From a virus (taxonomy: Duplodnaviria; Heunggongvirae; Uroviricota; Caudoviricetes), in IMG/VR virus record IMGVR_UViG_2537562015_000005, positions 1-27,033 of that record: a stretch of DNA of 27,033 nucleotides, one strand, 5' to 3'. Positions 6,619 through 26,036 of the stretch are shown in pieces. The notes under the pieces were generated by a model. It was not told the DNA's origin, made no database searches, and saw only the letters and a list, made by a program, of their open reading frames with translations. Within the stretch, counting starts at the first letter, position 1, and every line of letters begins with the position of its first letter. The position numbers and the translations under genes were made by a program.

Positions 6619-6843
6619 ATGCTGAATAATAGAGATATGAATATTAATGAACTTAAAGACTGTATTCACTATGAAGTAATCGGTAGCGAGCGTCCTTTCT
6701 CCTGGCGAAAGGCAATTGTTCGCGCAATAAAACATAGAAGACTTCGTTATTTATTTTGGTGGCGCATAGCCAAATACCTTTTTGATAAAGGCGGATACTG
6801 CCGGAAGATTGCGGGGAAAATAGAACGTTTCATTCTTGGGTAG
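6619..6843 (+). pseudogene. N-terminal fragment of a putative hexapeptide-family (CysE/WbbJ-like) acetyltransferase, cut by IS1
   Basis: AT-rich 74-aa ORF with a helical N-terminal pattern (...LRYLFWWRIAKYLFDKGG..RKIAGKIERFILG) like the N-terminus of sugar O-acetyltransferases. Its stop codon TAG (6841..6843) lies inside the IS1 terminus (IS1 starts 6839). Family assignment is tentative. Confidence 0.3.
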
Positions 6844-6853
6844 TGACTCCAAC

Positions 6854-7357
6854 TTACTGATAGTGTTTTATGTTCAGATAATGCCCGATGACCTTGTCAT
6901 GCAGCTCCACCGATTTTGAGAACGACAGTGACTTCCGTCCCAGCCTTGCCAGATGTTGTCTCAGATTCAGATTATGTCGCTCAATGCGCTGAGTGTAACG
7001 CTTGCTGATAACGTGCAGCTTTCCCTTCAGGCGTGATTCATACAGCGGCCAGCCATCCGTCATCCATACCACGACCTCAAAGGCCGACAGCAGGCTCAGA
7101 AGACGCGCCAGTGTGGCCAGAGTGCGTTCACCGAAAACGTGCGCCACAACTGTCCTCCGTATCCTGTCATACGCGTAAAACAGCCAGCGCTGACGTGATT
7201 TAGCACCGACGTAGCCCCACTGTTCGTCCATTTCCGCGCAGACAATCACATCACTGCCCGGTTGTATGCGCGAGGTTACCGACTGCGGCCTGAGTTTTTT
7301 AAGTGACGTAAAACCGTGTTGAGGCCAACGCCCATAATGCGGGCAGTTGCCCGGCAT
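6854..7357 (-). CDS. insB: IS1 transposase InsB (expressed as InsAB' by frameshift)
   Basis: 167 aa [18 protein letters not shown]...; canonical IS1 insB. Confidence 0.9.
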
Positions 7358-7551
7358 CCAACGCCATTCATGGCCATATCAATGATTTTCTGGTGCGTAC
7401 CGGGTTGAGAAGCGGTGTAAGTGAACTGCAGTTGCCATGTTTTACGGCAGTGAGAGCAGAGATAGCGCTGATGTCCGGCGGTGCTTTTGCCGTTACGCAC
7501 CACCCCGTCAGTAGCTGAACAGGAGGGACAGCTGATAGAAACAGAAGCCAC
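7276..7551 (-). CDS. insA: IS1 InsA
   Basis: 91 aa [39 protein letters not shown]...; canonical IS1 insA. Confidence 0.9.
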
Positions 7552-7760
7552 TGGAGCACCTCAAAAACACCATCATACACTAAATCAGTAAGTTGGCAGC
7601 ATCACCCAGGTTTGGCTCGAATAAAAGGTAAAACATTTGGTGCGTTACCGTTAGATAACAATAATCCATTTTGGCTAGATAATGATGCCGCCCCAGGGTT
7701 AAAAAAGAGCCTGGGGGATGTCACTAAGGCTGCATTTGATTTATGTGATAAGTAACTAAA

Positions 7761-8762
7761 ATGTCGGTTCGTAAGATTCCATCAGGTAAATGGCTTTGCG
7801 AATGTTATCCCTACGGGGCATCGGGAAAACGCATTCGTAAACAGTTTGCGACAAAAAGTGAGGCGCTCTCTTATGAGCGCCGTTTAATGAATAGTAGAGT
7901 TGGAGACGAGTTTCAAGATGGTTCTGGTCCTCGTCTTTCTGAGTTGATTGCTCGTTGGTTTGAGATGTACGGTAAAACCTTGTCCTCTGGTGCAGAGCGC
8001 AAAGTCAAACTTGAGGCGATTTGTTCCAGGCTGGGAGATCCATTTGCTTCTCAGTTTGACAAAAATATGTTTGCCACTTATCGGGAAAGAAGGTTATCAG
8101 GAGAGTGGAATCCCAAGGGGAAGAAAAAACTTAGTGAAGCAACCGTTAATCGCGAGCAGTCATATCTACATGCTGTTTTTGCCGAACTGAAGCGCCTTGG
8201 GGAGTGGTCTGGTGAAAACCCCCTGACTGGTATTCGCAAGTTTCGTGAGGAAGAAAAGGAACTGGCGTTTCTGTATGTAGATGAGATTGAACGCCTTCTG
8301 ATTGCGTGTGATGAGTCACGGAATAAAGATTTGGGGGTTGTTGTCCGTATTGGGCTTGCGACTGGTGCTCGGTGGAGTGAAGCAGAAGGGTTAAAGCAAT
8401 CTCAAGTACTGCCCGGTCGAATCACATTTGTTAAAACTAAAGGAAAGAAGAACCGCACTGTACCGATTTCACCTCAATTGCAGGCTATGCTTCCCAAAAA
8501 ACGAGGAGCGCTATTTTCACCATGTTATGAGGCTTTTGACGCTGCAATTAAGAGAGCGAAGATCGAGCTTCCTGATGGGCAATTAACTCATGTGCTACGT
8601 CACACGTTTGCCAGTCATTTTATGATGCGGGGCGGAAATATTCTTGTGTTGCAAAAAATACTGGGGCATAGCGATATAAAAATGACTATGCGTTATGCGC
8701 ATTTTGCTCCAGGTCATTTAGAGGCTGCTGTTGAATTGAACCCTTTTGACAATAGAGGGTAA
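7761..8762 (+). CDS. int: P2-type phage integrase (tyrosine recombinase)
   Basis: 333 aa; C-terminal catalytic region ...GARWSEAEGL...TFVKTKGKKNRTVPIS...HVLRHTFASHFMMRGGNILVLQKILGHSDIKMTMRYAHFAPGHLEAAVELNP closely parallels P2 Int as recalled. Sits next to a tRNA 3' fragment. Confidence 0.9.
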   Translation: MSVRKIPSGKWLCECYPYGASGKRIRKQFATKSEALSYERRLMNSRVGDEFQDGSGPRLSELIARWFEMYGKTLSSGAERKVKLEAICSRLGDPFASQFDKNMFATYRERRLSGEWNPKGKKKLSEATVNREQSYLHAVFAELKRLGEWSGENPLTGIRKFREEEKELAFLYVDEIERLLIACDESRNKDLGVVVRIGLATGARWSEAEGLKQSQVLPGRITFVKTKGKKNRTVPISPQLQAMLPKKRGALFSPCYEAFDAAIKRAKIELPDGQLTHVLRHTFASHFMMRGGNILVLQKILGHSDIKMTMRYAHFAPGHLEAAVELNPFDNRG

Positions 8763-8868
8763 AAAGTGGCGATAAAAAGTGACAATAGATTCAAATGGCG
8801 TTGTATAGAGCCATTTTCAAAGTTAATAAAATCATAAGGTTATGATTTATAAATGGTGGTTGATAGTT

Positions 8869-8923
8869 TTTAAAATCCCTCGGCGTTCGCGCTGTGCGGG
8901 TTCAAGTCCCGCTCCGGGTACCA
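8869..8923 (+). other. tRNA-Leu(UAA) 3' fragment (anticodon loop to CCA), attachment-site remnant
   Basis: TTTAAAATCCCTCGGCGTTCGCGCTGTGCGGGTTCAAGTCCCGCTCCGGGTACCA matches the 3' 55 nt of E. coli leuZ as recalled. The upstream sequence cannot form the acceptor or D arm, so this is not a complete tRNA. Confidence 0.75.
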
Positions 8924-8963
8924 TGGGAAAGACAAGAATAATCAAAGCAATAAGCAGTGTCGT

Positions 8964-8990
8964 GAAACCACCTACGGGTGGTTTTTTTGT
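8964..8990. terminator. Rho-independent terminator-like hairpin, possibly bidirectional
   Basis: AAACCACC-TACG-GGTGGTTT followed by a T-run, with an A-run before the stem. Lies between the tRNA fragment and the 3' end of the minus-strand gene 9024..9905. Confidence 0.55.
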
Positions 8991-9023
8991 GCCTGAAATT
9001 CACGCCCTGTGCATATCCTGTGC

Positions 9024-9905
9024 TCACGGGGTGCAATGAGCCGCAATCTCCAGCCTGGCAATGCCGAATCGAACGTGTCGCCTCCAGCATAGAGAACCAG
9101 GCCGCTTTGCCTGTTTTCCGGTACTCTTCCGGGAAGGGTGGCCTGCTGAGCAAGTTGTAATGCTCTGGCCGCCCTTAGTACAAAGTTGCTTAATTCGTGC
9201 AATCACCTCATCTCTGTACTTCTGGTGTCCGCGCATAGCCCTTGGATGGGCAATTCTGAAACAGATTGTATTACCTGTTTTGAACTCCCACAGCTTCCCC
9301 GGAATGACTGAAGAAGTCTCATAACCGCCCAGCTCAGTAAGCACCTGTTTAATGATGTAGTCTGTTCTCCGGGCTCCGGATGCAAAGATCATGAAATCAG
9401 GCTCAAGGTGTTTAATTTGTACCGCCAGCAGCTTCAGCGAGGCTAATATGACTTCCTGCACTTCATTTTGAGGGCGATTGAGAGGGGTCAGTCCGTCGTA
9501 ATCCCACGCCAGTAGATTGGCATACACGATAGCCTGAGGAGGAATATTAAGCTCCCGGGCCAGCCTGAAATGATATTGCGTGAAGCGGCTACGTGATTTG
9601 AGGTTGGTGGTGCCATCATTTTGTACCGGAAGATGTTTCCTGTAACGATCTACAGCTTCTTCAACCACCTGCCCGATGGTGACGTCAGGCATAAGTCCCA
9701 ACACCCGTGATATCGTATTCTTACCATTCAGCGTATTCCAGCCTGCGGTTTCACGTCTAACCAGCATGATTTTTACCGGTGAATGCCAGTATTCTTCAAA
9801 CGGCACGGGTAAAAAGACGCCTGAGTATTTATCTTCATTCAGGTTAAATGACTGGGCGTCAACTTCCTGTAATATCCGTTTGTACGCGTCTAATAGCCTT
9901 TCCAT
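9024..9905 (-). CDS. Hypothetical protein; C-terminal ~60 aa may not be native
   Basis: 293-aa ORF with an RBS; no family recognised. The last ~60 codons (about 9024..9200) are GC-rich and low-complexity (..GGQSITTCSAGHPSRKSTGKQAKRPGSLCWRRH..), unlike the rest of the gene. Confidence 0.5.
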   Translation of the reverse strand: MERLLDAYKRILQEVDAQSFNLNEDKYSGVFLPVPFEEYWHSPVKIMLVRRETAGWNTLNGKNTISRVLGLMPDVTIGQVVEEAVDRYRKHLPVQNDGTTNLKSRSRFTQYHFRLARELNIPPQAIVYANLLAWDYDGLTPLNRPQNEVQEVILASLKLLAVQIKHLEPDFMIFASGARRTDYIIKQVLTELGGYETSSVIPGKLWEFKTGNTICFRIAHPRAMRGHQKYRDEVIARIKQLCTKGGQSITTCSAGHPSRKSTGKQAKRPGSLCWRRHVRFGIARLEIAAHCTP

Positions 9906-9985
9906 TCTTCAATCCTGCCCCGTAATAAAAACACCTTCAGATATATATTATTTTCATGATATCAATCAGATATATGAGGATAAAT

Positions 9986-11185
9986 ATGCAAAAATCCTTC
10001 CGATTCACCAATTCATCCATCAAAGCCCTTCCGGCAAACACAGATACCCGATCTACAGAGCTTGAGGTATCCGATACTGAGGTCATTGGCCTCAAATGCC
10101 TCTCAGGTCGAACGGGTAACAAACGTTTCCTCCTGCGCTACACATTCCACGGTACCAAAAAAAGTATCAGTATTGGCAGATTCCCTGAAATTGATGTGGG
10201 GACAGCCCGTCAGATAGCTCGTCGTCACAAGGAGGCGATTGCACTGGGAAATGACCCTAAGGCAGAACGCGATAATTATCGTGCTATGCCAACGCTTAGT
10301 GAGTTTTTTCACCAGACCTATGTTCCGTTCATCAAACGCCATAAAAAGTCCTGGGATAAGGATGTTCAGCGTTTCACGCAATACATTGAACCTTGTCTGG
10401 GGAAGATACGTTACTGTGACCTTCGGGCCCGGGAAATCCAGCAGGTGCTTTTCGACATGCTTGAGGGTCGTATTCACGGGCAGCAATATGCGCCGTCTAC
10501 CTGTAACAGAGCCCTTGCTATTCTGAAAACGATGGGGCGTTATGCGTTGCGACAGGATGTGCTGGAAAAGAATGAAGCCGATAAGATCCCTTTACTGAAA
10601 GAGAATAATCAGCGGACGCGCTTTTTTGATGCTGATGAGATCAGGCGCATTCTTGACGCTGCTACCCAATATCCCAACAAAGCTGCCGGGGGATTGATAG
10701 CCATGTTGTTGTTAACCGGTACACGCAAAACAGAAATGCTTAATGTCAGGCATGAACATATCGACCGGGCCAATCGTACTCTGTTCATTCCTTATACAAA
10801 AAATGGTCGCAGTCGGACGGTATATCTAAGCGATGCCGCATTATCGATTATTGATGCTATCCCACGAGTTGGCAGTAATCCGTATCTGTTCGCCATTAAG
10901 GATAATGGCAAACCGATATCGGAACCCCGATGGGCATATGAAAAAATACTGGCACAGTGCGGTATAGACAAGAATGAAGTCTGTTTTCACACCACACGTC
11001 ATTCTGTTGCCTCTTTACTGGTTTCGAGTGGTCAATTCAGCCTGTATGACGTTAAAGCCCAACTGGCGCATGCCAGTATTCAGAGTACAGAACGTTACGC
11101 GAAATTAACACCGGAACGTATGCGTCAGACAGGGCAGGGAGTGACTGACCTGCTTCTGAATACTGCGGCTACGAAGCAGATGTGA
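9986..11185 (+). CDS. int: P4-type integrase (tyrosine recombinase)
   Basis: ATG at 9986 preceded by GAGGA (the track ORF starts upstream at 9956 in the same frame). N-terminal arm-binding-type region plus C-terminal catalytic region (..LLLTGTRKTEM..HTTRHSVASLL..ERYAKL). Confidence 0.85.
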   Translation: MQKSFRFTNSSIKALPANTDTRSTELEVSDTEVIGLKCLSGRTGNKRFLLRYTFHGTKKSISIGRFPEIDVGTARQIARRHKEAIALGNDPKAERDNYRAMPTLSEFFHQTYVPFIKRHKKSWDKDVQRFTQYIEPCLGKIRYCDLRAREIQQVLFDMLEGRIHGQQYAPSTCNRALAILKTMGRYALRQDVLEKNEADKIPLLKENNQRTRFFDADEIRRILDAATQYPNKAAGGLIAMLLLTGTRKTEMLNVRHEHIDRANRTLFIPYTKNGRSRTVYLSDAALSIIDAIPRVGSNPYLFAIKDNGKPISEPRWAYEKILAQCGIDKNEVCFHTTRHSVASLLVSSGQFSLYDVKAQLAHASIQSTERYAKLTPERMRQTGQGVTDLLLNTAATKQM

Positions 11186-12484: not shown

Positions 12485-12566
12485 TTTATTTCCTGCACTG
12501 TTATACAACCAGAAATCACCACACACCACTATTTACTTTCTAAAGGAAAATGGTAGTGACTCCAAC

Positions 12567-13070
12567 TTACTGATAGTGTTTTATGTTCAGATAATGCCCG
12601 ATGACCTTGTCATGCAGCTCCACCGATTTTGAGAACGACAGTGACTTCCGTCCCAGCCTTGCCAGATGTTGTCTCAGATTCAGATTATGTCGCTCAATGC
12701 GCTGAGTGTAACGCTTGCTGATAACGTGCAGCTTTCCCTTCAGGCGTGATTCATACAGCGGCCAGCCATCCGTCATCCATACCACGACCTCAAAGGCCGA
12801 CAGCAGGCTCAGAAGACGCGCCAGTGTGGCCAGAGTGCGTTCACCGAAAACGTGCGCCACAACTGTCCTCCGTATCCTGTCATACGCGTAAAACAGCCAG
12901 CGCTGACGTGATTTAGCACCGACGTAGCCCCACTGTTCGTCCATTTCCGCGCAGACAATCACATCACTGCCCGGTTGTATGCGCGAGGTTACCGACTGCG
13001 GCCTGAGTTTTTTAAGTGACGTAAAACCGTGTTGAGGCCAACGCCCATAATGCGGGCAGTTGCCCGGCAT
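12567..13070 (-). CDS. insB: IS1 transposase InsB
   Basis: Identical to 6854..7357. Confidence 0.9.
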
Positions 13071-13264
13071 CCAACGCCATTCATGGCCATATCAATGATT
13101 TTCTGGTGCGTACCGGGTTGAGAAGCGGTGTAAGTGAACTGCAGTTGCCATGTTTTACGGCAGTGAGAGCAGAGATAGCGCTGATGTCCGGCGGTGCTTT
13201 TGCCGTTACGCACCACCCCGTCAGTAGCTGAACAGGAGGGACAGCTGATAGAAACAGAAGCCAC
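12989..13264 (-). CDS. insA: IS1 InsA
   Basis: Identical to 7276..7551. Confidence 0.9.
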
Positions 13265-13314
13265 TGGAGCACCTCAAAAACACCATCATACACTAAATCA
13301 GTAAGTTGGCAGCA

Positions 13315-14139
13315 TCACCCAGAGTATACAATGCTTAAAATTATGGCGTTACTTATATTATTAATTGCAGTTGGGTAAATATGCAGGTTGCTTATCAATT
13401 CTGAAAGGCAAAGTAAAACACCAGTGATGTTAGGTTTTCTGCCAGATATTGTGGTGGTGTTGAAAATGTGCCGATTCTTACGACTTATATTGACAAATTT
13501 ATGAGTGCAGAACTCTATATGTTCGACGATTTTATCTTGACTATTTTTAATGTATTTTGAAATGTTAGTGATTCGTCCATTCAACGTTAGCTCATCAAGT
13601 AATATGTCATTTTTAATACTGCGAATTTCATCGCAATGTTTAGATTCAAAAACTATCTCATGTAATACATAACTCGACGTATTGCGGGGTGACGCTGATA
13701 TGTAATCTAAAATAGAAGGCTCGATTTTGATTTTTTGTTTGTATTTTTTAATGCACTGTTTGATTATTTTTTGTAGAGTATTTGAGATGTGTTTTTTATA
13801 TTCTTTTAGAAAATCATGCTCTAAAAAGAGTGAGGAGAAGATCAACTGCTGGCGAGATAATTTAATCTCAGGCTTGATCAATTTAATCCGGAAAACTCTT
13901 CCCTCCAACTCATAGCTGAACATGGAAGATAAGTCATAGTGGGGTGATAAATGTTCGAGTAACGACATTCGTGTATTCATTAGCCGCTTGAATTTATGGT
14001 CAGCATACATAAGTATTTTTTTTATTTGCTCATCGTAAAGTGGGCCGATAACGCAATTAGCAATACTCATACTATCCGGAGACCTCCAGTCAACAGGGGA
14101 ATCACATTGACGGCCACCATTACAATCAAAGGGTATCAA
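13315..14139 (-). CDS. AT-rich hypothetical protein (K/I/N-rich), probably truncated at the 3' end by IS1; likely start near 14071 (MSIANCVIG...)
   Basis: Visibly AT-rich ORF, foreign to its neighbours. Its stop codon (13315..13317) lies inside the IS1 terminus (IS1 ends 13319). Divergent from hsdM. No family recognised. Confidence 0.5.
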   Translation of the reverse strand: MIPFDCNGGRQCDSPVDWRSPDSMSIANCVIGPLYDEQIKKILMYADHKFKRLMNTRMSLLEHLSPHYDLSSMFSYELEGRVFRIKLIKPEIKLSRQQLIFSSLFLEHDFLKEYKKHISNTLQKIIKQCIKKYKQKIKIEPSILDYISASPRNTSSYVLHEIVFESKHCDEIRSIKNDILLDELTLNGRITNISKYIKNSQDKIVEHIEFCTHKFVNISRKNRHIFNTTTISGRKPNITGVLLCLSELISNLHIYPTAINNISNAIILSIVYSG

Positions 14140-16029: not shown

Positions 16030-17123
16030 CTCTTAAATGGGAAAAGGTTCGTTTAGGAGATGTCGCAGAATTACAACGTGGTTTTGATCTACCCAGTACT
16101 AAGCGTATTGAAGGGGAGATTCCTATTGTTTCATCAAGTGGAATAACAGGCTTCCATGTTGAAGCGAAGGCAAAGGCTCCAGGAGTTGTCACTGGGCGAT
16201 ATGGTTCGATTGGTGATGTTTTTTATTTAGAACAGGATTTTTGGCCATTAAATACATCCTTATGGGTTAAAGATTTTCATGGAAATGACGAAAAATTTAT
16301 CTACTTTCTGTTGAGTAACTTTGACTTTAAAAAATTTAGTGACAAAACAGGTGTGCCCGGTGTTAACCGTAATGACTTGCATGCAGTGAATGTATTACTG
16401 CCGCCACTCTCGGAGCAAAAGAAAATCGCCCAAATCCTGTCAACCTGGGATAAAGCTATTTCGGTGACGGAAAAGCTTCTCACCAACAGCCAGCAGCAGA
16501 AAAAAGCCCTGATGCAGCAATTACTTACCGGGAAGAAACGCTTGCTGGATGAGAGGGGGGGCAGGTATGGTGGTGAGTGGCATCGTGCTGAGCTTGGCGC
16601 AGTTTTAGATTATATGCAGCCAACCCCTTATCTAGTTGATTCTACTGATTATAATGATAGTTACTCAATCCCAGTTCTTACAGCAGGTAAAAGTTTCATT
16701 CTTGGCTATACCAATGAAGAACATGGTATTTATCATGCACCTTTGCCTGCCATAATTTTTGATGATTTCACGACTGATAGTAAGTTCGTCGATTTTGAAT
16801 TCAAAGCAAAATCCAGTGCGATGAAAATTCTTACAGCCAAAAAAGGAGTATCTGCAAAGTATATTTTTGAAGCAATGCAAATGTTGAAATTTAAAATAGG
16901 TGGGCATCAGCGGCATTGGATTTCAATTTATTCCAACTTAGTAATACCTATTCCAGATGCCAAGGAACAACAAAAAATCGCCGCCGTCCTTTCCGCTGCA
17001 GACGCCGAAATCTCCACACTGGAGAAAAAACTCGCCTGCCTGAAAGACGAGAAAAAAGCCCTGATGCAGCAGTTACTGACCGGAAAACGTCGGGTGAAAA
17101 TCGATGAGGCTGTTGCTGCATGA
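16026..17123 (+). CDS. hsdS: Type I R-M specificity subunit HsdS
   Basis: 365 aa with two target-recognition domains separated by conserved helical repeats (QQKKALMQQLLTGKKRL and EKKALMQQLLTGKRRV). ATGA overlap with hsdM. TRD2 is visibly more AT-rich. Confidence 0.9.
   Translation: MTLKWEKVRLGDVAELQRGFDLPSTKRIEGEIPIVSSSGITGFHVEAKAKAPGVVTGRYGSIGDVFYLEQDFWPLNTSLWVKDFHGNDEKFIYFLLSNFDFKKFSDKTGVPGVNRNDLHAVNVLLPPLSEQKKIAQILSTWDKAISVTEKLLTNSQQQKKALMQQLLTGKKRLLDERGGRYGGEWHRAELGAVLDYMQPTPYLVDSTDYNDSYSIPVLTAGKSFILGYTNEEHGIYHAPLPAIIFDDFTTDSKFVDFEFKAKSSAMKILTAKKGVSAKYIFEAMQMLKFKIGGHQRHWISIYSNLVIPIPDAKEQQKIAAVLSAADAEISTLEKKLACLKDEKKALMQQLLTGKRRVKIDEAVAA
16500..16540 (+). repeat. hsdS conserved central repeat; direct repeat partner at 17052..17089
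   Basis: AAAAAAGCCCTGATGCAGCA(A/G)TTACT(T/G)ACCGG occurs twice within hsdS, about 550 bp apart. Confidence 0.8.
17052..17089 (+). repeat. hsdS conserved C-terminal repeat; partner of 16500..16540
   Basis: See partner repeat. Confidence 0.8.
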
Positions 17124-17803
17124 AACTGACGAAAAGTGGTCCACTGACTGACCGGGAAATCGACTGGCTGGAAGAGGTGTTGATGAAATACGGCAATGAT
17201 GACTCTGTGCTCTGTTTCTCTGAGCTGGATGGCTTTCTGACGGCGATTGTCTCTGGCCCGAATACGATTTCCCCTAATACCTGGCTCAGTGCTATCTGGG
17301 GGCGAGGTGATTACCACCCTCGCTGGACCACTGAAAAAGAGATGACGCGTTTTGTGGGGCTGTGTTTTCAGCATATGAACGATATCGCTGGCTGCCTGTA
17401 TGAGGCCCCTGAACAGTTTGAACCGATTTTCAATGAGCGTGAGGTAAAGGGGGAAAAATATACCATTGTGGAAGAGTGGTGTTTTGGTTATATGAAAGGA
17501 AAGTCACTGGATGACTGGTCTGGTCTTCCCGGTGAGTTACGGCCTTCTCTGGAAGTGATCGCTCTTCATGGCGTGGAGAAGAATTTTCCTGTACTTGAGA
17601 AAATGACCGGAGAGCAGTTTGAGAAAAGTATTTCCCTTATTCAGCCTGCTGCACTGGCACTTTATCAGTACTGGTTGTCAGTGAGAATGTCAGAGGCATC
17701 ATCCCGGCCTGTTCCAGTGAAGGGGGCAGAAAACATGCCCGGGCGAAATGACCCGTGTCCGTGTGGCAGCGGTAAAAAATTTAAGAAGTGCTGTCTGCAT
17801 TGA
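17120..17803 (+). CDS. YecA-like protein (UPF0149 domain + C-terminal SEC-C zinc-binding motif) embedded in the hsd operon
   Basis: 227 aa ending GRNDPCPCGSGKKFKKCCLH (SEC-C motif as in the SecA C-terminus and YecA). N-terminal region resembles YecA. Start overlaps the hsdS stop (ATGA). Confidence 0.8.
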   Translation: MKLTKSGPLTDREIDWLEEVLMKYGNDDSVLCFSELDGFLTAIVSGPNTISPNTWLSAIWGRGDYHPRWTTEKEMTRFVGLCFQHMNDIAGCLYEAPEQFEPIFNEREVKGEKYTIVEEWCFGYMKGKSLDDWSGLPGELRPSLEVIALHGVEKNFPVLEKMTGEQFEKSISLIQPAALALYQYWLSVRMSEASSRPVPVKGAENMPGRNDPCPCGSGKKFKKCCLH

Positions 17804-20800: not shown

Positions 20801-21140
20801 AGCCCGTAAGCTCAGCGATATCCCGGATGCACTGGCGGTAAACAAGCATGCTCAGGCGTATTACGGTGTATTTAAAAAAGAGCTACCAGAGGTTTTTGCG
20901 GTAAACGACGTTCAGGTGCAGGATAAGTGGACGAAGCTGGCTTTTGAAGTGGACAACATTATCGTCAAAGCGGTGGCAGAAAACTCCCTGAACCCACAGG
21001 ATATTGAAAAAGCCGTTAAGACAAGTCTTTTGCCGCTGCTGTTTACGGCCTGCCGGGAGATGGGTGCCGGAATGAATCAGGTTAACCGTATTGTGGAAAC
21101 CATCATCCAGATACTGCGCGTTGGTTTGATGAAATCATGA
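17853..21140 (+). CDS. hsdR: Type I restriction enzyme R subunit HsdR (EcoR124-like, probably type IC)
   Basis: 1095 aa; nuclease region (FVNGIPLAVIEAKS), helicase motifs (GGVIWHTTGSGKS, LIDEGHRSQ, FTGTP, LLTGFDEP, QAIARVNR) colinear with EcoR124 HsdR as recalled. Confidence 0.95.
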   Translation: MMNQTYTPKFQEEYSAKIPALTLLTSLGWTFLSPKQIMDYRGYKQDEVVLRPVLREELSKRSFMAGGKTCQLSEKALDNLISQVCSPALNEGLLKANERMYNHLLYGIAVTEFVDGKKVNPTIALIDWEHPENNQFHFTEEFTVLRSGGVETRRPDIVCFVNGIPLAVIEAKSPAGHGKKGPTIDEGISQSIRNQFNDEIPQLFVYSQLLLSINGHDGRYGTCHTPMKFWAAWREEDITDAQMYALRNHPLSTEQIHALFDHRPSADLNWYQQLIAAGELAVSGQDKLLISLLSPERLLEMTRFFTLFDKKTGKIVARYQQVFGIKRLLERISTRRPDGGREGGVIWHTTGSGKSYTMVFLSKALILHDSLKRCRIVVVTDRIDLEEQLSSTFASGGELAGKKDKANAMATSGQMLAKQIGSGKERIIFTLIQKFNSATKLPECVNTSPDIIVLIDEGHRSQGGENHVRMKLALPNAAFVAFTGTPLLKEDKTTNKFGPIVHAYTMQRAVEDKAVTPLLYEERIPDLEVNDRAIDAWFDRITDGLSEAQKADLKRKYARKGEVYSADDRIRLIALDIATHFSKNIDEGLKGQLACDSKISAIKYKKYLDEAGLFESAVVISPPDTREGNTEVDESKLPEVTKWWKDNVGTQDESVYTRNIISRFDTDEKLKLLIVVDKLLTGFDEPKNTVLYIDKPLKSHNLIQAIARVNRLHPLKKFGLLIDYRGILAELDTTIGKYQDLASRTQGGYDIKDIDGLYSAMSSEYKRLPHLYNQLWAIFAGVKNKNDTEQLRAVLVPKMEERDGEMVDIHQKTRDDFFEALTAFAGCLKVALQSATFFTDKSFTEQDRNLYKETVKQMSSLRQWAMQVSGEQVNYDDYAEQVKKLLDKHVTGVEVREPDGVYEVGKMGKSEKPEEWDNNKTRNETDIIKTRVTKMIEQELRDDPYAQEAFSKLLRMAIEEAEKLFDHPLKQYLLFREFEEQVEARKLSDIPDALAVNKHAQAYYGVFKKELPEVFAVNDVQVQDKWTKLAFEVDNIIVKAVAENSLNPQDIEKAVKTSLLPLLFTACREMGAGMNQVNRIVETIIQILRVGLMKS

Positions 21141-21892
21141 GTGAAAAAGAATCGCCATCAATGAAAGCGTTACGCATTGTTTATGGTGATGAGGTCATCA
21201 CCGTACAGTGTGTTCCGCGTCAGGTCGTAAAGGGCAGGGTGCTCATCAAGGTTTATCCGGACTGCCGGGTTGTGGCCTCTGTACCGCCTGAAACACCGGA
21301 GCACGAGGTATTGTCTGCGCTGAAAAAACGAGGGCGCTGGATATACCAGCAACTGCGTGATTTCAGGGTGCAACAGACACACATTGTTCCGCGTCAGTAT
21401 GTCAGCGGAGAAAGCCATTATTATCTCGGTAAGCAATATCAGTTGAAAGTGACAGAAGACGCTACTGTGCCGCAACGAGTGAAAATGTTGCGTGGGCGTC
21501 TGGAAGTGACTGTCAGACACAAATCGGCAGAAAAGATTAAAGCCTTGCTGGCTGAATGGTATCGGGAACGCGCCAGAGATGTTTTTCAGCGCAGGCTTGA
21601 TTTACTGATTCCGCAGACCCTTTGGGTCAGTGAGCGTCCTCCGATACGTCTGCGGGCGATGCAAACGCAATGGGGCAACTGCTCTGCAAAAGGCTGTCTG
21701 ACCCTGAATCCATGGCTGGTTAAGGCATCCTCAGAATGTATCGATTATGTCTTGCTACATGAGTTATGCCATGTGGCTGAGCACAACCATAGTGAGGAGT
21801 TTTACCGCTTGATGGGGCAGGTTATGCCGGGGTGGGAAAAGGTTAAGAAGCGACTGGATGGTATGGCTGGGATGTTGTTGGCAGATATGTAG
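21137..21892 (+). CDS. HExxH zinc metallopeptidase-like protein (DUF45/YgjP-like), translationally coupled to hsdR
   Basis: 251 aa with LLHELCHVAEHNH (HExxH) near the C-terminus; start overlaps the hsdR stop (ATGA). Confidence 0.8.
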   Translation: MSEKESPSMKALRIVYGDEVITVQCVPRQVVKGRVLIKVYPDCRVVASVPPETPEHEVLSALKKRGRWIYQQLRDFRVQQTHIVPRQYVSGESHYYLGKQYQLKVTEDATVPQRVKMLRGRLEVTVRHKSAEKIKALLAEWYRERARDVFQRRLDLLIPQTLWVSERPPIRLRAMQTQWGNCSAKGCLTLNPWLVKASSECIDYVLLHELCHVAEHNHSEEFYRLMGQVMPGWEKVKKRLDGMAGMLLADM

Positions 21893-21923: not shown

Positions 21924-22525
<602 letters not shown>

Positions 22526-22546: not shown

Positions 22547-24001
22547 ATGATGGAGAGCATTAATAATCAAGTGCAGTCGGTACGCCAGTTGCTGGCCATT
22601 CCCCAACTGGCCATCCCAAGCTATCAGCGACCTTACCGCTGGGGCTCCAAGAATATCTCGGATCTCTTTACCGATTTGGCAACCCATCAGGACAAGAGCG
22701 CCTACCGGCTGGGCTCGGTGGTGTTTCATCAGCACACCGATAGTGAGCAGGGCGAGATGCTTGATATCGTCGATGGTCAGCAACGCACCCTGACCCTGAT
22801 GTTGACCGTCAAGGCGCTGATCGAGGTGCTGGATAACGAAAATCGCAGTGGCAAAGAGAAGAGTATCCGGTTTCAACGTCAGGATCTGCGTGAGCAATTG
22901 CAGGTCTTGCGTGGACCTATCGATGCGTTTATGCAGCGCCAGCGCTTCCCCAGCCGGGATTCGGAGTTCAACCTCAGACGTAACTATCTGGAGTTGCGTC
23001 GGCTGGTGGCCCGCCCTGAGTTTGACGAGCAGCAAATTGACTTTCTGCTCAACCGCTGTCAGGTGGTCTGCTTTGTACTGCAGGATATCTCGGAGGCGTT
23101 CCAGTTCTTCGATTCGCAAAATGCCCGGGGGCGCGATCTGGCTCCTCACGATCTGCTCAAGGCATTTCACCTGCGCGAGTTTGCCGGTCATGAGGCCAAT
23201 CTCAAGGCCGAGGCGGTCGCCCATTGGGAGCGCCAGCCAAGCGACGAGCTGGCCAATCTGTTCGCCCTCTATCTCTATCGGGTACGCCAGTGGGCCGAGG
23301 GCAAGTCGGCCCGCTACTTTGGCAAGGGGGAGGTGGATCTCTTCAAGGGGGTCAACCTAGATCGGGTAGGGCATTATCCTTACGTGGAGTCGCTGCGCAT
23401 CGCCCACCACTTTGTCGATGAGTACAACAGCCAGTACCAGCGCAAGATTGACGGCCAGTACATGACGTTTCCCTTTCATCTCGACCAGATGATCATCAAT
23501 GGTCGGCGCTTTTTCGAGATGGCCGAGTACTACCAGACGCGGGTGGCCGCCATCGTGGCCGAGGAGTCTGATTCCGGCAAGGCGCAATCTGCCACCCTGC
23601 TCGGCGAAACGCTGACACCGATGGCCAGCAAGGTGCTATCGACCCTGGGCAGCTACGAGCGTCGCCACCGCACCGGGGATCGTTATGTGCGGGCCATGTT
23701 CGACTGCGCCCTGATCTTCTATATCGACAAGTTCGGCAGCCAAGGGCTGTCACTGGCCATCGAGAAGTGCTTTATCTGGGCCTATCGCTGCCGCATCCGC
23801 CAGCAGGTAGTGCAGTTGGCAACCATGGATAACTATGTGCTGGAGCACAATCTGATCCGTGCCATTCGTGATGCTCGTCTGCCGGGAGATCTGCACGGCT
23901 TCCCTTTGCCTAGCATGAGCAGTCGAGAGAACAAGAACAATCGCAATGGTGCCGAAGATGAGCTGGTCGGGCTGTTTCGGGAGATGAAATATTATGAATG
24001 A
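22547..24001 (+). CDS. DUF262-domain protein (ParB-like/GmrS-like N-terminal module; no nuclease motif seen)
   Basis: 484 aa; N-terminal motifs [10 protein letters not shown] and [12 protein letters not shown], then [22 protein letters not shown]. High GC. Overlaps the next gene by 8 nt. Confidence 0.8.
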
Positions 24002-26036
24002 TGCAGGCGTTCGCCCCTTTTCCATTCGTGCACTGCTTGAAGATCGCGCCCGCTATCTGGTGCCCATGTACCAGCGCAACTATGCCTGGGGTGAGGGAGA
24101 GATCACCCAGCTGCTGCAGGATGTGCTGGATTATCAGCAAAAATTGGTCAGTGGTAAGGGGCCGCAAACCTACTATATCGGCACCCTGGTGGTGTTTGCC
24201 CGGGACGATGGCAGTTTCGAGGTAATCGATGGCCAGCAGCGCTTTACTACCCTCTCTCTGCTGGCCAATTGGCTCAAACATCACGCGATAGATTCGGTGG
24301 ATATGAGCTGGTATCAGACCATCAACCTCGCTTTTGAGAGTCGCCCGATATCGAGCCATACCTTCGAGCGCTTATGGCAGGGTGTTGCCCCCGACGATTT
24401 GCGGGGGAGTACCTTCAATGAAGGTTTGGTGAACGGTTTTGAGCTGATTGGCAAGGCAATGGCGGATCTTGGTTTGGTAGGGGCTAAACTGACGGCCTTT
24501 TGCGACTACCTCTTCAAGCATGTGCAGATCTCTCGTATCGAAGTACCCAAGGATACCGATCTCAATCACTTCTTCGAGGCGATGAACAATCGCGGCGAGC
24601 AGTTGGAAAAGCATGAAGTGATCAAGGCGCGGCTGATGGAGACGCTGAACCAGATACCCGAGGAAGAGCATCGTCGCCAAAGTATTCATATCCTGACCCG
24701 GGTATGGGATGCCTGCGCCAATATGGAGCGCTATATCCAGTACGGCTTTACCCCGCAAGAGCGCCACCGTCTGTTTGGTGAGAGCGACTGGGGTCAGTTT
24801 GTGCCCCGTGATTTTGCCCATCTGCTTGAACTGCTAGGATCCCCAAACACGGCCGACGCTGCCGATAAAAGCCGTGCAGCTGCCGGTAGCCAAGGGCGCA
24901 CCTTGTTGGCCATTTTGCAGGATGACAAGCTTGATGGTGAGCAGACGGTGGAGGAGGAGAGCGCAGGCTCCGAGCGCTTTAACAGCGTCATCAACTTCTC
25001 CAACTTCTTGCTCCATGTGCTGCGACTCGTGAGCCGCGACCCGGGTGATACGGAGGGGGTGCCGCTTGATGATAAACAACTGGTCGATCAGTTTGAGCTG
25101 CGAGTGATAAGGCAACCGGATCCAGTAGCGGCAGTTCAGCGTTTTATCTATGGCCTGTTAAAGAGCAAGTATCTGTTTGATCAGTTCATCATCAAGCGCG
25201 AGTTTGCCGATGGCAAGGATAGTTGGAGTCTGAAGCGGCTGCACTGGTATTCGGAAAAGAGCGTCAGTTACATCAATACCTTTGACAAGGATGAAAATGA
25301 GAATGGTTTCTCTGGTGTTAACCGGCGGGTCCTGATGTTGCTGTCGGCGTTTCATGTGTCGACCCCGACCCTGGTTTACAAACATTGGCTGAATGGTGCA
25401 CTGAGATATCTGTTCGACAATTGTCACCCTGATCAACCGGTGGATGCCGGGGCTTATCTGTCCTATCTGGAGAGTCAGGCTCGCCGCTTTGTCTTCCAGC
25501 GCTTTTTGGCGCCTGGTGAAGGGGCTTCCTATTACCAGATGCTCTACCTTGATAACGCCCTGTTGCCCGCCATCAATGTGGATGAGAGTTGGCACAAGGT
25601 GATTACATCCAAACTTCGCTTCGGTCATATCGAGAACAACTTTGTCTTCAACTTCCTTGACTATCTGCTGTGGGTACGAGATCGGAATAGCGACAAAGTT
25701 GCTGGCTCCTTTGAGTTCACTTTCCGCAGCTCGGTGGAGCACTTCTCACCCCAGCATCCGATGGATGGCTATAAACCGGTTGAGCAGAGTGCACTCCATT
25801 CGTTTGGCAACCTTTGCCTTATCAGCCACAGCAAGAACTCGCGCTTGAGTAACTTCCAGCCGCAACAGAAGCAGGAGCACTTTGAAGCAAGCCTTGCCAA
25901 TAACCAGACTGATAGTCTTAAATTGCTTGCTATGATTCGGCTGATGAAAGATAAAGGTCGTTGGCTGGAAGATGAGATAGCTGAGCATCAACAAGATATG
26001 TTGCAGGTCTTACTATCCAATCAAATTCAGCAATAA
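23994..26036 (+). CDS. DUF262 + DUF1524 protein (GmrSD-like, candidate type IV / modification-dependent endonuclease)
   Basis: 680 aa; N-terminal [38 protein letters not shown]; C-terminal His-Me-finger-like region [15 protein letters not shown]...[20 protein letters not shown]. High GC. Confidence 0.85.

Follow-up and report, generated by a model that had tools for sequence, protein, structure and literature searches.

Is the open reading frame (ORF) beside the integrase of the leuZ island a chimera, in which foreign GC-rich DNA has taken the place of the native C-terminus, and what protein does it encode? The question is raised by positions 9024..9905 (minus strand) of the window, by which we mean the whole stretch of DNA analyzed here, 27,033 nucleotides (nt) of the IMG/VR virus record IMGVR_UViG_2537562015_000005. 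A preliminary description of this DNA had reported an ORF with a ribosome-binding site and a GC-rich, low-complexity 3' part, and had attributed this part to recombination at the attachment (att)-proximal junction of an integrase-bearing island. Our analysis indicates instead that a gene of 246 codons has lost its stop codon, that it is the first gene inside one end of the leuZ island, that the copy in the window is probably impaired, and that its product is a glycosylase-like protein of the uracil-DNA glycosylase (UDG) superfamily; we consider this four-part reading, taken as a whole, to be fairly likely.

The ORF is a real one. In the program-made ORF list it starts with ATG and encodes 293 amino acids (aa), and direct reading of the sequence gives a Shine-Dalgarno-like AGGA (9913..9916, minus strand) 7 nt 5' of the ATG. 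Alignments of DNA and protein divide it into a native 246-codon coding region (9168..9905, minus strand), which encodes an uncharacterized protein with the predicted UDG-superfamily fold, and a non-native extension (9024..9167, minus strand) of 47 readthrough codons (9027-9167) and a new TGA stop (9024-9026). All 246 native residues, ending in ...RIKQLCTKGG, are encoded in the window, in frame and uninterrupted, with no frameshift, internal stop or truncation. Codon 247 (9165-9167) is CAG in the window and TAG in other E. coli alleles. In the DNA alignment this is seen on the plus strand as CTG in the window and CTA in H10407, O145 RM11626 and JNEC-KY204, all three of which are collinear with the window downstream and have an intact 246-aa coding sequence annotated, the protein of H10407 being WP_000413229. 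In strains identical to the window, the annotation of the Prokaryotic Genome Annotation Pipeline (PGAP) is limited to 9168-9905 and marked as a pseudogene.

The homologues end where the native gene ends. In protein alignments they stop at ...CT(K/Q)GG, where the window protein runs on, and nearly all of the 172 homologues retrieved from a large protein collection cover query residues 1 to ~246 and are 241-256 aa long. The tail was found in none of 49 loci from other genomes (0/49), in which the native length is about 241-256 aa, and no conserved tail giving a protein of at least 290 aa was seen in an unrelated lineage. The preliminary description was therefore right that the tail is not native, as no homologue outside the same allele lineage has it, and the alignment that it had suggested for locating the point of divergence places this point at codon 246/247.

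That the native C-terminus had been swapped by recombination could be argued from the absence of the tail in homologues, from a GC content unlike that of the gene body, and from the chance TGA that ends the extension only 28 nt short of the att repeat. However, the native terminus is intact, and the sole relevant difference from the stop-bearing alleles is one base. The spacer beyond it is 0.95-0.98 identical between the window and the stop-retaining alleles, every allele has the same sequence over the 170 nt past the native stop, as do Citrobacter, Buttiauxella, Enterobacter and Franconibacter, and no non-collinear DNA was seen downstream of the stop in the TAG alleles. A single-base stop loss followed by the same downstream DNA leaves no recombination junction within the ORF. 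At the level of sequence, these alignments show the tail to be readthrough after a TAG to CAG change and not a recombinational replacement, for which we see an extremely small probability. The change at 9165-9167 would carry translation 47 codons on, through the gene's own 3' untranslated region (UTR) and into the left arm of the island attachment site.

Since the difference is one base, a sequencing or assembly error over a true 246-aa gene might also be suspected. However, 29 complete genomes produced by independent projects have the same base, and the exact protein occurs on 321 contigs of a public collection, so that the chance of an error is negligible.

The compositional change at the 3' end of the ORF is genuine and modest. 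GC content is 0.576 for 9024-9167 and 0.477 for 9168-9905, with 0.494 for the whole window; the rise reported earlier thus exists, with its break at 9167/9168 (codon 246/247) and not near 9200, as the range of about 9024..9200 given for it had implied. That the tail looks GC-rich reflects no more than the base composition of the non-coding island end. The tail peptide is basic (isoelectric point, pI, 11.4), contains 16 residue types, which does not fit its earlier portrayal as low-complexity, and resembles translated non-coding DNA. Its length needs no special cause, because 14% of shuffles of the DNA 3' of the native stop contain 47 or more codons in a row without a stop. On the minus strand, 9027-9167 is free of stops in all three sense frames, with open runs of 47, 64 and 87 codons. 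This triple open frame is probably due to chance plus GC content, because it is not kept in diverged alleles. The idea that the spacer is a relic coding region, prompted by these three open frames, was rejected on account of the stops in diverged alleles and the neutral rate of its gene-proximal half.

A further possibility is that the 47-residue extension is a selected functional module at the C-terminus, for example a basic DNA-binding tail. Its strong basicity could favor DNA binding, and many sampled genomes have the 293-aa form, as the 321 contigs attest. Against this, the 293-aa form is limited to one allele lineage (29 of the ~554 complete genomes that bear the element), and the DNA of the tail evolves neutrally in its first half, while the second half is constrained as DNA, through repeats common to the other island end, and has no codon pattern. 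Two frameshifted relatives of 284 aa, P0002 and P0003, translate the tail DNA in a different frame, and the stop-loss lineage has later gained a substitution, G50R, at an invariant residue. We therefore regard a selected module as highly improbable, and return to stop loss as the origin of the tail.

The element is carried by ~554 of 5426 complete E. coli genomes (about 10%). Among the 5426, the exact 61-mer with CAG occurs in 29 and the exact 61-mer with Arg50 in 25. Codon 50 (9756-9758) is AGA (Arg) in the window and GGA (Gly) in H10407, and a Gly50-retaining variant of the 293-aa protein occurs on 4 contigs. The existence of this variant and the counts of 29 and 25 genomes establish the order of events in one E. 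coli lineage, which includes O6:H16 enterotoxigenic E. coli (ETEC) strains: stop loss came first, and G50R followed. Gly50 is found in 105 of 105 aligned homologues and at all 49 loci from other genomes (49/49), and in an AlphaFold2 (AF2) model it lies at the end of strand beta-1 and the start of the motif-A loop.

Since Gly50 is invariant and stands at the start of this motif-A-equivalent loop, the window copy is probably impaired. Both mutations are directly observed, and that they leave the protein inactive or impaired is an interpretation to which we give somewhat better than even weight; the full native sequence is still encoded, and on that count the 293-aa product could be active. The allele has lost its native stop and carries a substitution at an invariant residue. 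In this it resembles stop-loss alleles of decaying accessory genes, with which it shares the stop-to-sense change, the extension through the 3' UTR to a chance stop, the restriction to a lineage and a second damaging substitution; it is unlike ordinary stop-loss alleles only in that the extension crosses an arm of an att site.

The native protein belongs to a family that escapes curated sequence models. Scans of the ORF against Pfam (even at E<=1), NCBIfam and PADLOC gave no match, and a profile search of Protein Data Bank (PDB) sequences returned chance matches only and no glycosylase. PHROGs yielded only phrog_29550, of unknown function, whose profile of 293 positions implies that the extended form was gathered from prophage predictions. 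Distant family members approach the Pfam UDG model PF03167 (E 5e-5, 23.9 bits) and remain below its gathering cut-off of 24.3. The automatic name in UniRef is 'Uracil-DNA glycosylase-like domain-containing protein'. A literature search on the protein accession and on leuZ-island defense found nothing specific.

Structure prediction provided a clearer assignment. The AF2 model, which covers residues 1-246 and is based on 106 sequences, has a mean predicted local distance difference test score (pLDDT) of 91.8 and a predicted template modeling score (pTM) of 0.91. Foldseek with this model retrieved UdgX, family-4 UDG, SMUG1 and TDG at E values of 3e-5 to 1e-3, and the model is an alpha/beta/alpha sandwich with a central parallel beta-sheet that can be superposed on solved UDGs. 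The modeled fold is thus clearly that of the UDG superfamily, within which the family forms a distinct, uncharacterized branch. The earlier statement that the protein had no recognizable family is borne out for curated sequence families, and does not hold for the fold, which structure searches recover.

The 106-sequence alignment contains 29 invariant columns, many of them polar. The equivalent of motif A (residues 50-56; 9738..9758, minus strand), located by alignment and model, reads RRETAGW in the window and GRETAGW in the family. The conserved loop G50-R51-E52-T53-A54-G55-W56-N57 directly follows strand beta-1 (46-50) and has no Pro or Asp/Asn at the canonical place. Motif A of known UDGs is of the type GQDPY, GINPG, GMNPG or GEAPG. 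The equivalent of motif B (residues 219-227, AHPRAMRGH; 9225..9251, minus strand) follows a strand at 213-218 in the model; its residues A219, H220, P221 and R222 are invariant in the 106 sequences, and we take this AHPRA loop as the counterpart of the HPS-type motif B in UDG families. N130, D135, Y136, R144 and E148 are also invariant. The sole conserved cysteine is C215, so that the protein is not an iron-sulfur UDG of the family 4, family 5 or UdgX type. As far as the model shows, the protein is a single-domain UDG-superfamily enzyme with its own motifs, VGRETAGW and AHPRA.

Comparison with known families places it apart from each. Family 4 UDGs (UdgA; Thermotoga maritima TM0511 1L9G, Thermus thermophilus 1UI0, S. 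tokodaii 4ZBY) and UdgX are 9-15% identical to the window family; in contrast to them, it has GRETAGW in place of GE(A/Q)PG, lacks the four [4Fe-4S]-ligating cysteines, is ~50 residues longer owing to an N-terminal helix and insertions, and resides on mobile islands. Unlike SMUG1/SMUG2 and MUG/TDG (UDG families 2 and 3), it has no G(M/I)NPG motif, and there is no detectable sequence similarity to them.

The family comprises ~520 cluster representatives among 1.84 billion proteins and is almost wholly gammaproteobacterial. It is under purifying selection, with an identity to a diverged allele of 0.88 at codon positions 1+2 and 0.68 at position 3. Enterobacter, Franconibacter, Citrobacter and Buttiauxella have copies of 93-98% identity, one such contig being labeled Vagococcus; each of these copies is followed by the same spacer, and all but one contig then have the leuZ repeat. 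The gene is mobile across genera. A collection of 50,697 phage records held no copy (0/50,697), and the few copies on plasmids have uninformative contexts.

What surrounds the gene was surveyed with Pfam and PADLOC for 129 flanking proteins at 35 loci. Recurrent Pfam neighbors were ADP_ribosyl_GH (4), GmrSD_N (3), WYL, PLDc_2 and an HpaII restriction-modification (R-M) pair, and the PADLOC neighbors were Hhe, Mokosh, PDC-S26 and PDC-S37. The likely source of the four ADP-ribosylglycohydrolase matches is a set of 370-aa ORFs that lie directly 3' of the gene in Marinobacter (L056 8777-9886; L058 and L060 8765-9874) and overlap it in two loci. In Proteus the gene is followed, after 139 nt and in the same orientation, by genes for an Mrr-type enzyme and a type I R-M system; on one contig of Intestinirhabdus alba it adjoins two GmrSD_N genes. 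In the window itself, the island cargo includes a type I R-M operon, a gene for a YgjP-like peptidase and two GmrSD-like genes. Many family members are paired with a gene for a 109-aa partner.

The published anti-phage glycosylases are likewise orphan UDG-fold proteins in defense islands, Brig1 acting on alpha-glucosyl-hydroxymethylcytosine, Brig2 on modified thymidines and Brig3 on 5-hydroxymethylcytosine (PMC11078745; 10.1101/2025.10.29.685425; 10.64898/2026.02.25.707755), and ADP-ribosyl glycohydrolase genes adjoin Brig1 and Brig3 (PMC11078745; 10.64898/2026.02.25.707755). Compared with Brig1, Brig2 and Brig3 by their published descriptions, the family here is alike in having a UDG-superfamily fold outside the classical families and in its location on defense islands or mobile elements, as in the window island, Proteus and Intestinirhabdus. 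By analogy with these systems, the 246-aa protein may have a role in anti-phage defense, a proposal that we hold at slightly less than even weight because of the restriction and ADP-ribosylglycohydrolase neighbors, which recall the Brig1 and Brig3 loci, and the absence from phage genomes. The protein would flip a base out of DNA and cut its N-glycosidic bond; the target would be a non-canonical, phage-type modified base, and the resulting abasic sites would block phage replication, in a one-gene defense like that of Brig1, Brig2 and Brig3.

Several points weigh against this proposal. Motif A is without the usual arrangement of Pro or Asn/Asp, so that catalysis is not assured, and no PADLOC model matches the protein. 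Many neighborhoods are without anything related to defense, and the association is therefore not universal. In Pectobacterium and at Intestinirhabdus locus L020, the Mrr and PD-(D/E)XK neighbors lie past a leuZ fragment, which places them on a different inserted element and makes them weaker evidence for defense.

The main rival is that the island carries a repair-type glycosylase, directed at uracil, mismatches or damaged bases, and not an immune effector. The closest folds are indeed those of repair enzymes, namely family 4 and 5 UDG, SMUG1, MUG and TDG, and the many neighborhoods that are not obviously defensive would suit such an enzyme. Yet the motifs differ from those of all repair families and the [4Fe-4S] cysteines of families 4, 5 and UdgX are missing. 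The family is patchily distributed and linked to mobile elements, copies 93-98% identical being found across genera, and modification-dependent restriction genes and ADP-ribosylglycohydrolases occur alongside the gene in the manner of Brig1 and Brig3. A repair role thus appears unlikely.

The family also differs from the Brig proteins. The published active site of Brig3 (N50, P51, S52, E55, D127 and N225) has no match in G50, R51, E52, T53, H220, P221 and R222 of the present family. Brig1 homologues are mostly actinobacterial and Brig2 homologues come from several phyla, whereas this family is almost confined to one class, and many members here pair with the 109-aa partner and not with BapA. 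A bolder reading would make the family a fourth independent UDG-fold anti-phage lineage, directed at a modified base that no defense enzyme has so far been assigned to and built as a two-gene module with an acidic 109-aa partner in marine and pseudomonad members. This extension of the idea is doubtful at present. The partner would be an inhibitor, an immunity protein or a factor that sets specificity, and a leuZ island moving between genera would have acquired the enterobacterial form at its very edge.

The position of the gene follows from the att repeats. The 3' 55 nt of the tRNA-Leu(UAA) gene leuZ (8869..8923, plus strand), from the anticodon loop to CCA, are identical to K-12 leuZ from 'TTTAAAATCCC' on; they form the core of the att direct repeat and make up an incomplete tRNA, and ARAGORN found no complete tRNA in the window. 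A copy of the small RNA (sRNA) 3'ETS-leuZ, from the 3' external transcribed spacer (3'ETS), follows at 8924..8988 (plus strand), aligns with the K-12 feature b4759 and ends in the hairpin and T-run of the leuZ operon terminator. Identity of the window to K-12 continues to about 8995. The att direct repeat of ~127 bp (8869..8995, plus strand) flanks the leuZ island and also forms the right junction of a P2-like prophage to the left, which is inserted into leuZ and whose integrase lies at 7761-8762, left of the ORF.

In strain M9682-C1 this prophage is absent and a full leuZ stands at this position. The order there is pgsA, glyW, cysT, full leuZ, 3'ETS, spacer, ORF, P4-type integrase, ~25 kb of island and yecA. 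The second att copy, of 129 bp and 96.9% identical, adjoins yecA at the far island end (L025 18463-18591); chromosomal yecA itself flanks that end in this strain. As the repeat at 8869-8995 recurs at the yecA end, island-specific DNA starts at ~8996, and the genes of the island begin with the ORF. The P4-type tyrosine integrase of the island (9956..11185, plus strand; 409 aa; Pfam Arm-DNA-bind_3 and Phage_integrase) is divergent from the ORF; PGAP annotates it as a site-specific integrase starting at 9986. Repeats of the 3' part of a tRNA gene are thus present at both ends, and an integrase lies near one of them, 0.96 kb from the repeat, as in tRNA-targeting islands. The att repeat lies downstream of the gene in at least 15 loci from other Enterobacterales, and integrase orthologues (94-99.5% identity) adjoin the gene in 10 loci from other genomes. 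The preliminary description of an accessory gene at the att-proximal edge of an integrase-bearing island, divergent from a P4-type integrase and preceded by a ribosome-binding site, is confirmed by these features.

A fixed place between attL and the integrase could suggest an accessory factor for island integration, excision or att-site maintenance. The order gene, spacer, leuZ repeat is kept in ~18 enterobacterial loci, and in 10 the integrase is divergent and 50-80 nt away. However, the gene lies by leuZ without an adjacent integrase in Atlantibacter, Pectobacterium and Intestinirhabdus, and ~30 non-enterobacterial loci have neither the tRNA nor this integrase. We know of no recombination directionality factor with this fold, and consider such a function very unlikely.

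The spacer consists of two parts, which we compared with the diverged alleles of CAVP776, Shimwellia and Pectobacterium. The att-proximal part (8996..9090) is 0.85-0.87 identical to these alleles, a value close to that of codon positions 1+2; third codon positions have 0.63-0.68. The gene-proximal part (9091..9164), the 3' UTR in normal alleles, is 0.64-0.68 identical, equal to third codon positions, and so evolves at a near-neutral rate; a terminator search gave a weak terminator-like hairpin at 9113-9098 (minus strand). The conserved part contains the repeats CCCTGTGC and CTGTGCTCA and three GCAAT, and CCCTGTGC, CTGTGCTCA and CGCAATCT are repeated just inside the other island end in M9682-C1, with order and orientation kept. 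Because of the repeats at both ends and the arm-binding domain of the adjacent integrase, this segment most likely represents arm-type binding sites for the P4-type integrase, and thus a putative integrase arm of attL. The att-proximal half would be conserved through these short repeats. Two points speak against the assignment: it draws on sequence repeats only, and 8996-9090 is conserved in Atlantibacter and Pectobacterium without an adjacent integrase.

Other identities for the spacer were examined. No Rfam family passed the gathering threshold anywhere in the window, and at permissive settings 8800-9300 produced only chance matches below it; the spacer is therefore no known RNA. A mobile repeat or a piece of the K-12 chromosome was rejected, since the spacer is absent downstream of K-12 leuZ. 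In E. coli it is found only with this gene, usually once per genome.

Additional features of the att region were noted. 3'ETS-leuZ serves as an sRNA sponge in K-12. The copy within the att repeat has no promoter, and the 5' part of the 3'ETS differs by strain, being GACAAGAAT, AACATCAGAAT or GATAAGAATAA. If the tRNA-proximal copy of the repeat comes from the incoming element, an element that integrates at leuZ may exchange the 3'ETS on a live tRNA operon. Identity to leuZ starts from one shared point of the anticodon loop (TTTAAA|; window 8866-8870) for the P2-like prophage junction, for the far-end repeat of the island and for a third element, found in Pectobacterium and Intestinirhabdus (L013/L020 junctions). 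From these junctions, several unrelated elements appear to share one leuZ crossover point.

The remainder of the window contains the cargo of the island. In its type I R-M operon, a yecA-like gene (UPF0149 and SEC-C motif; 17120-17803) lies between hsdS and hsdR. The YgjP-like peptidase gene is at 21137-21892, and downstream of the operon and the peptidase gene are adjacent GmrSD_N+DUF7834 and GmrSD_N+GmrSD_C genes (22547-26036), a pair that is likely a modification-dependent restriction system. Two copies of the insertion sequence IS1 (6839-7609 and 12552-13322), 771 bp each, 100% identical and in the same orientation, enclose a 5.7-kb segment with the P2-like integrase, the att repeat, the glycosylase-like ORF, the P4-type integrase and two small ORFs. 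The arrangement resembles a composite transposon, through which the entire segment could be moved or lost. A third IS1, partial and inverted, is at 21924-22299.

The GC-rich tail itself matters little; it is a textbook stop loss in one ETEC-associated lineage and a case of ordinary gene decay, which shows that a one-base change is able to mimic a chimeric gene. The value lies in the gene beneath, which represents a compact, well-conserved UDG-fold family without a curated model, found among restriction systems at leuZ. Glycosylases have only lately been recognized as immune effectors (Brig1-3, Dag1/2). It is reasonable to regard the underlying gene as a new, uncharacterized member of the UDG superfamily on a mobile defense island, and as a candidate anti-phage glycosylase. 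The candidate is native to E. coli and comes with an intact allele (H10407) as well as natural mutants (stop loss, and stop loss with G50R), which makes it cheap to test.

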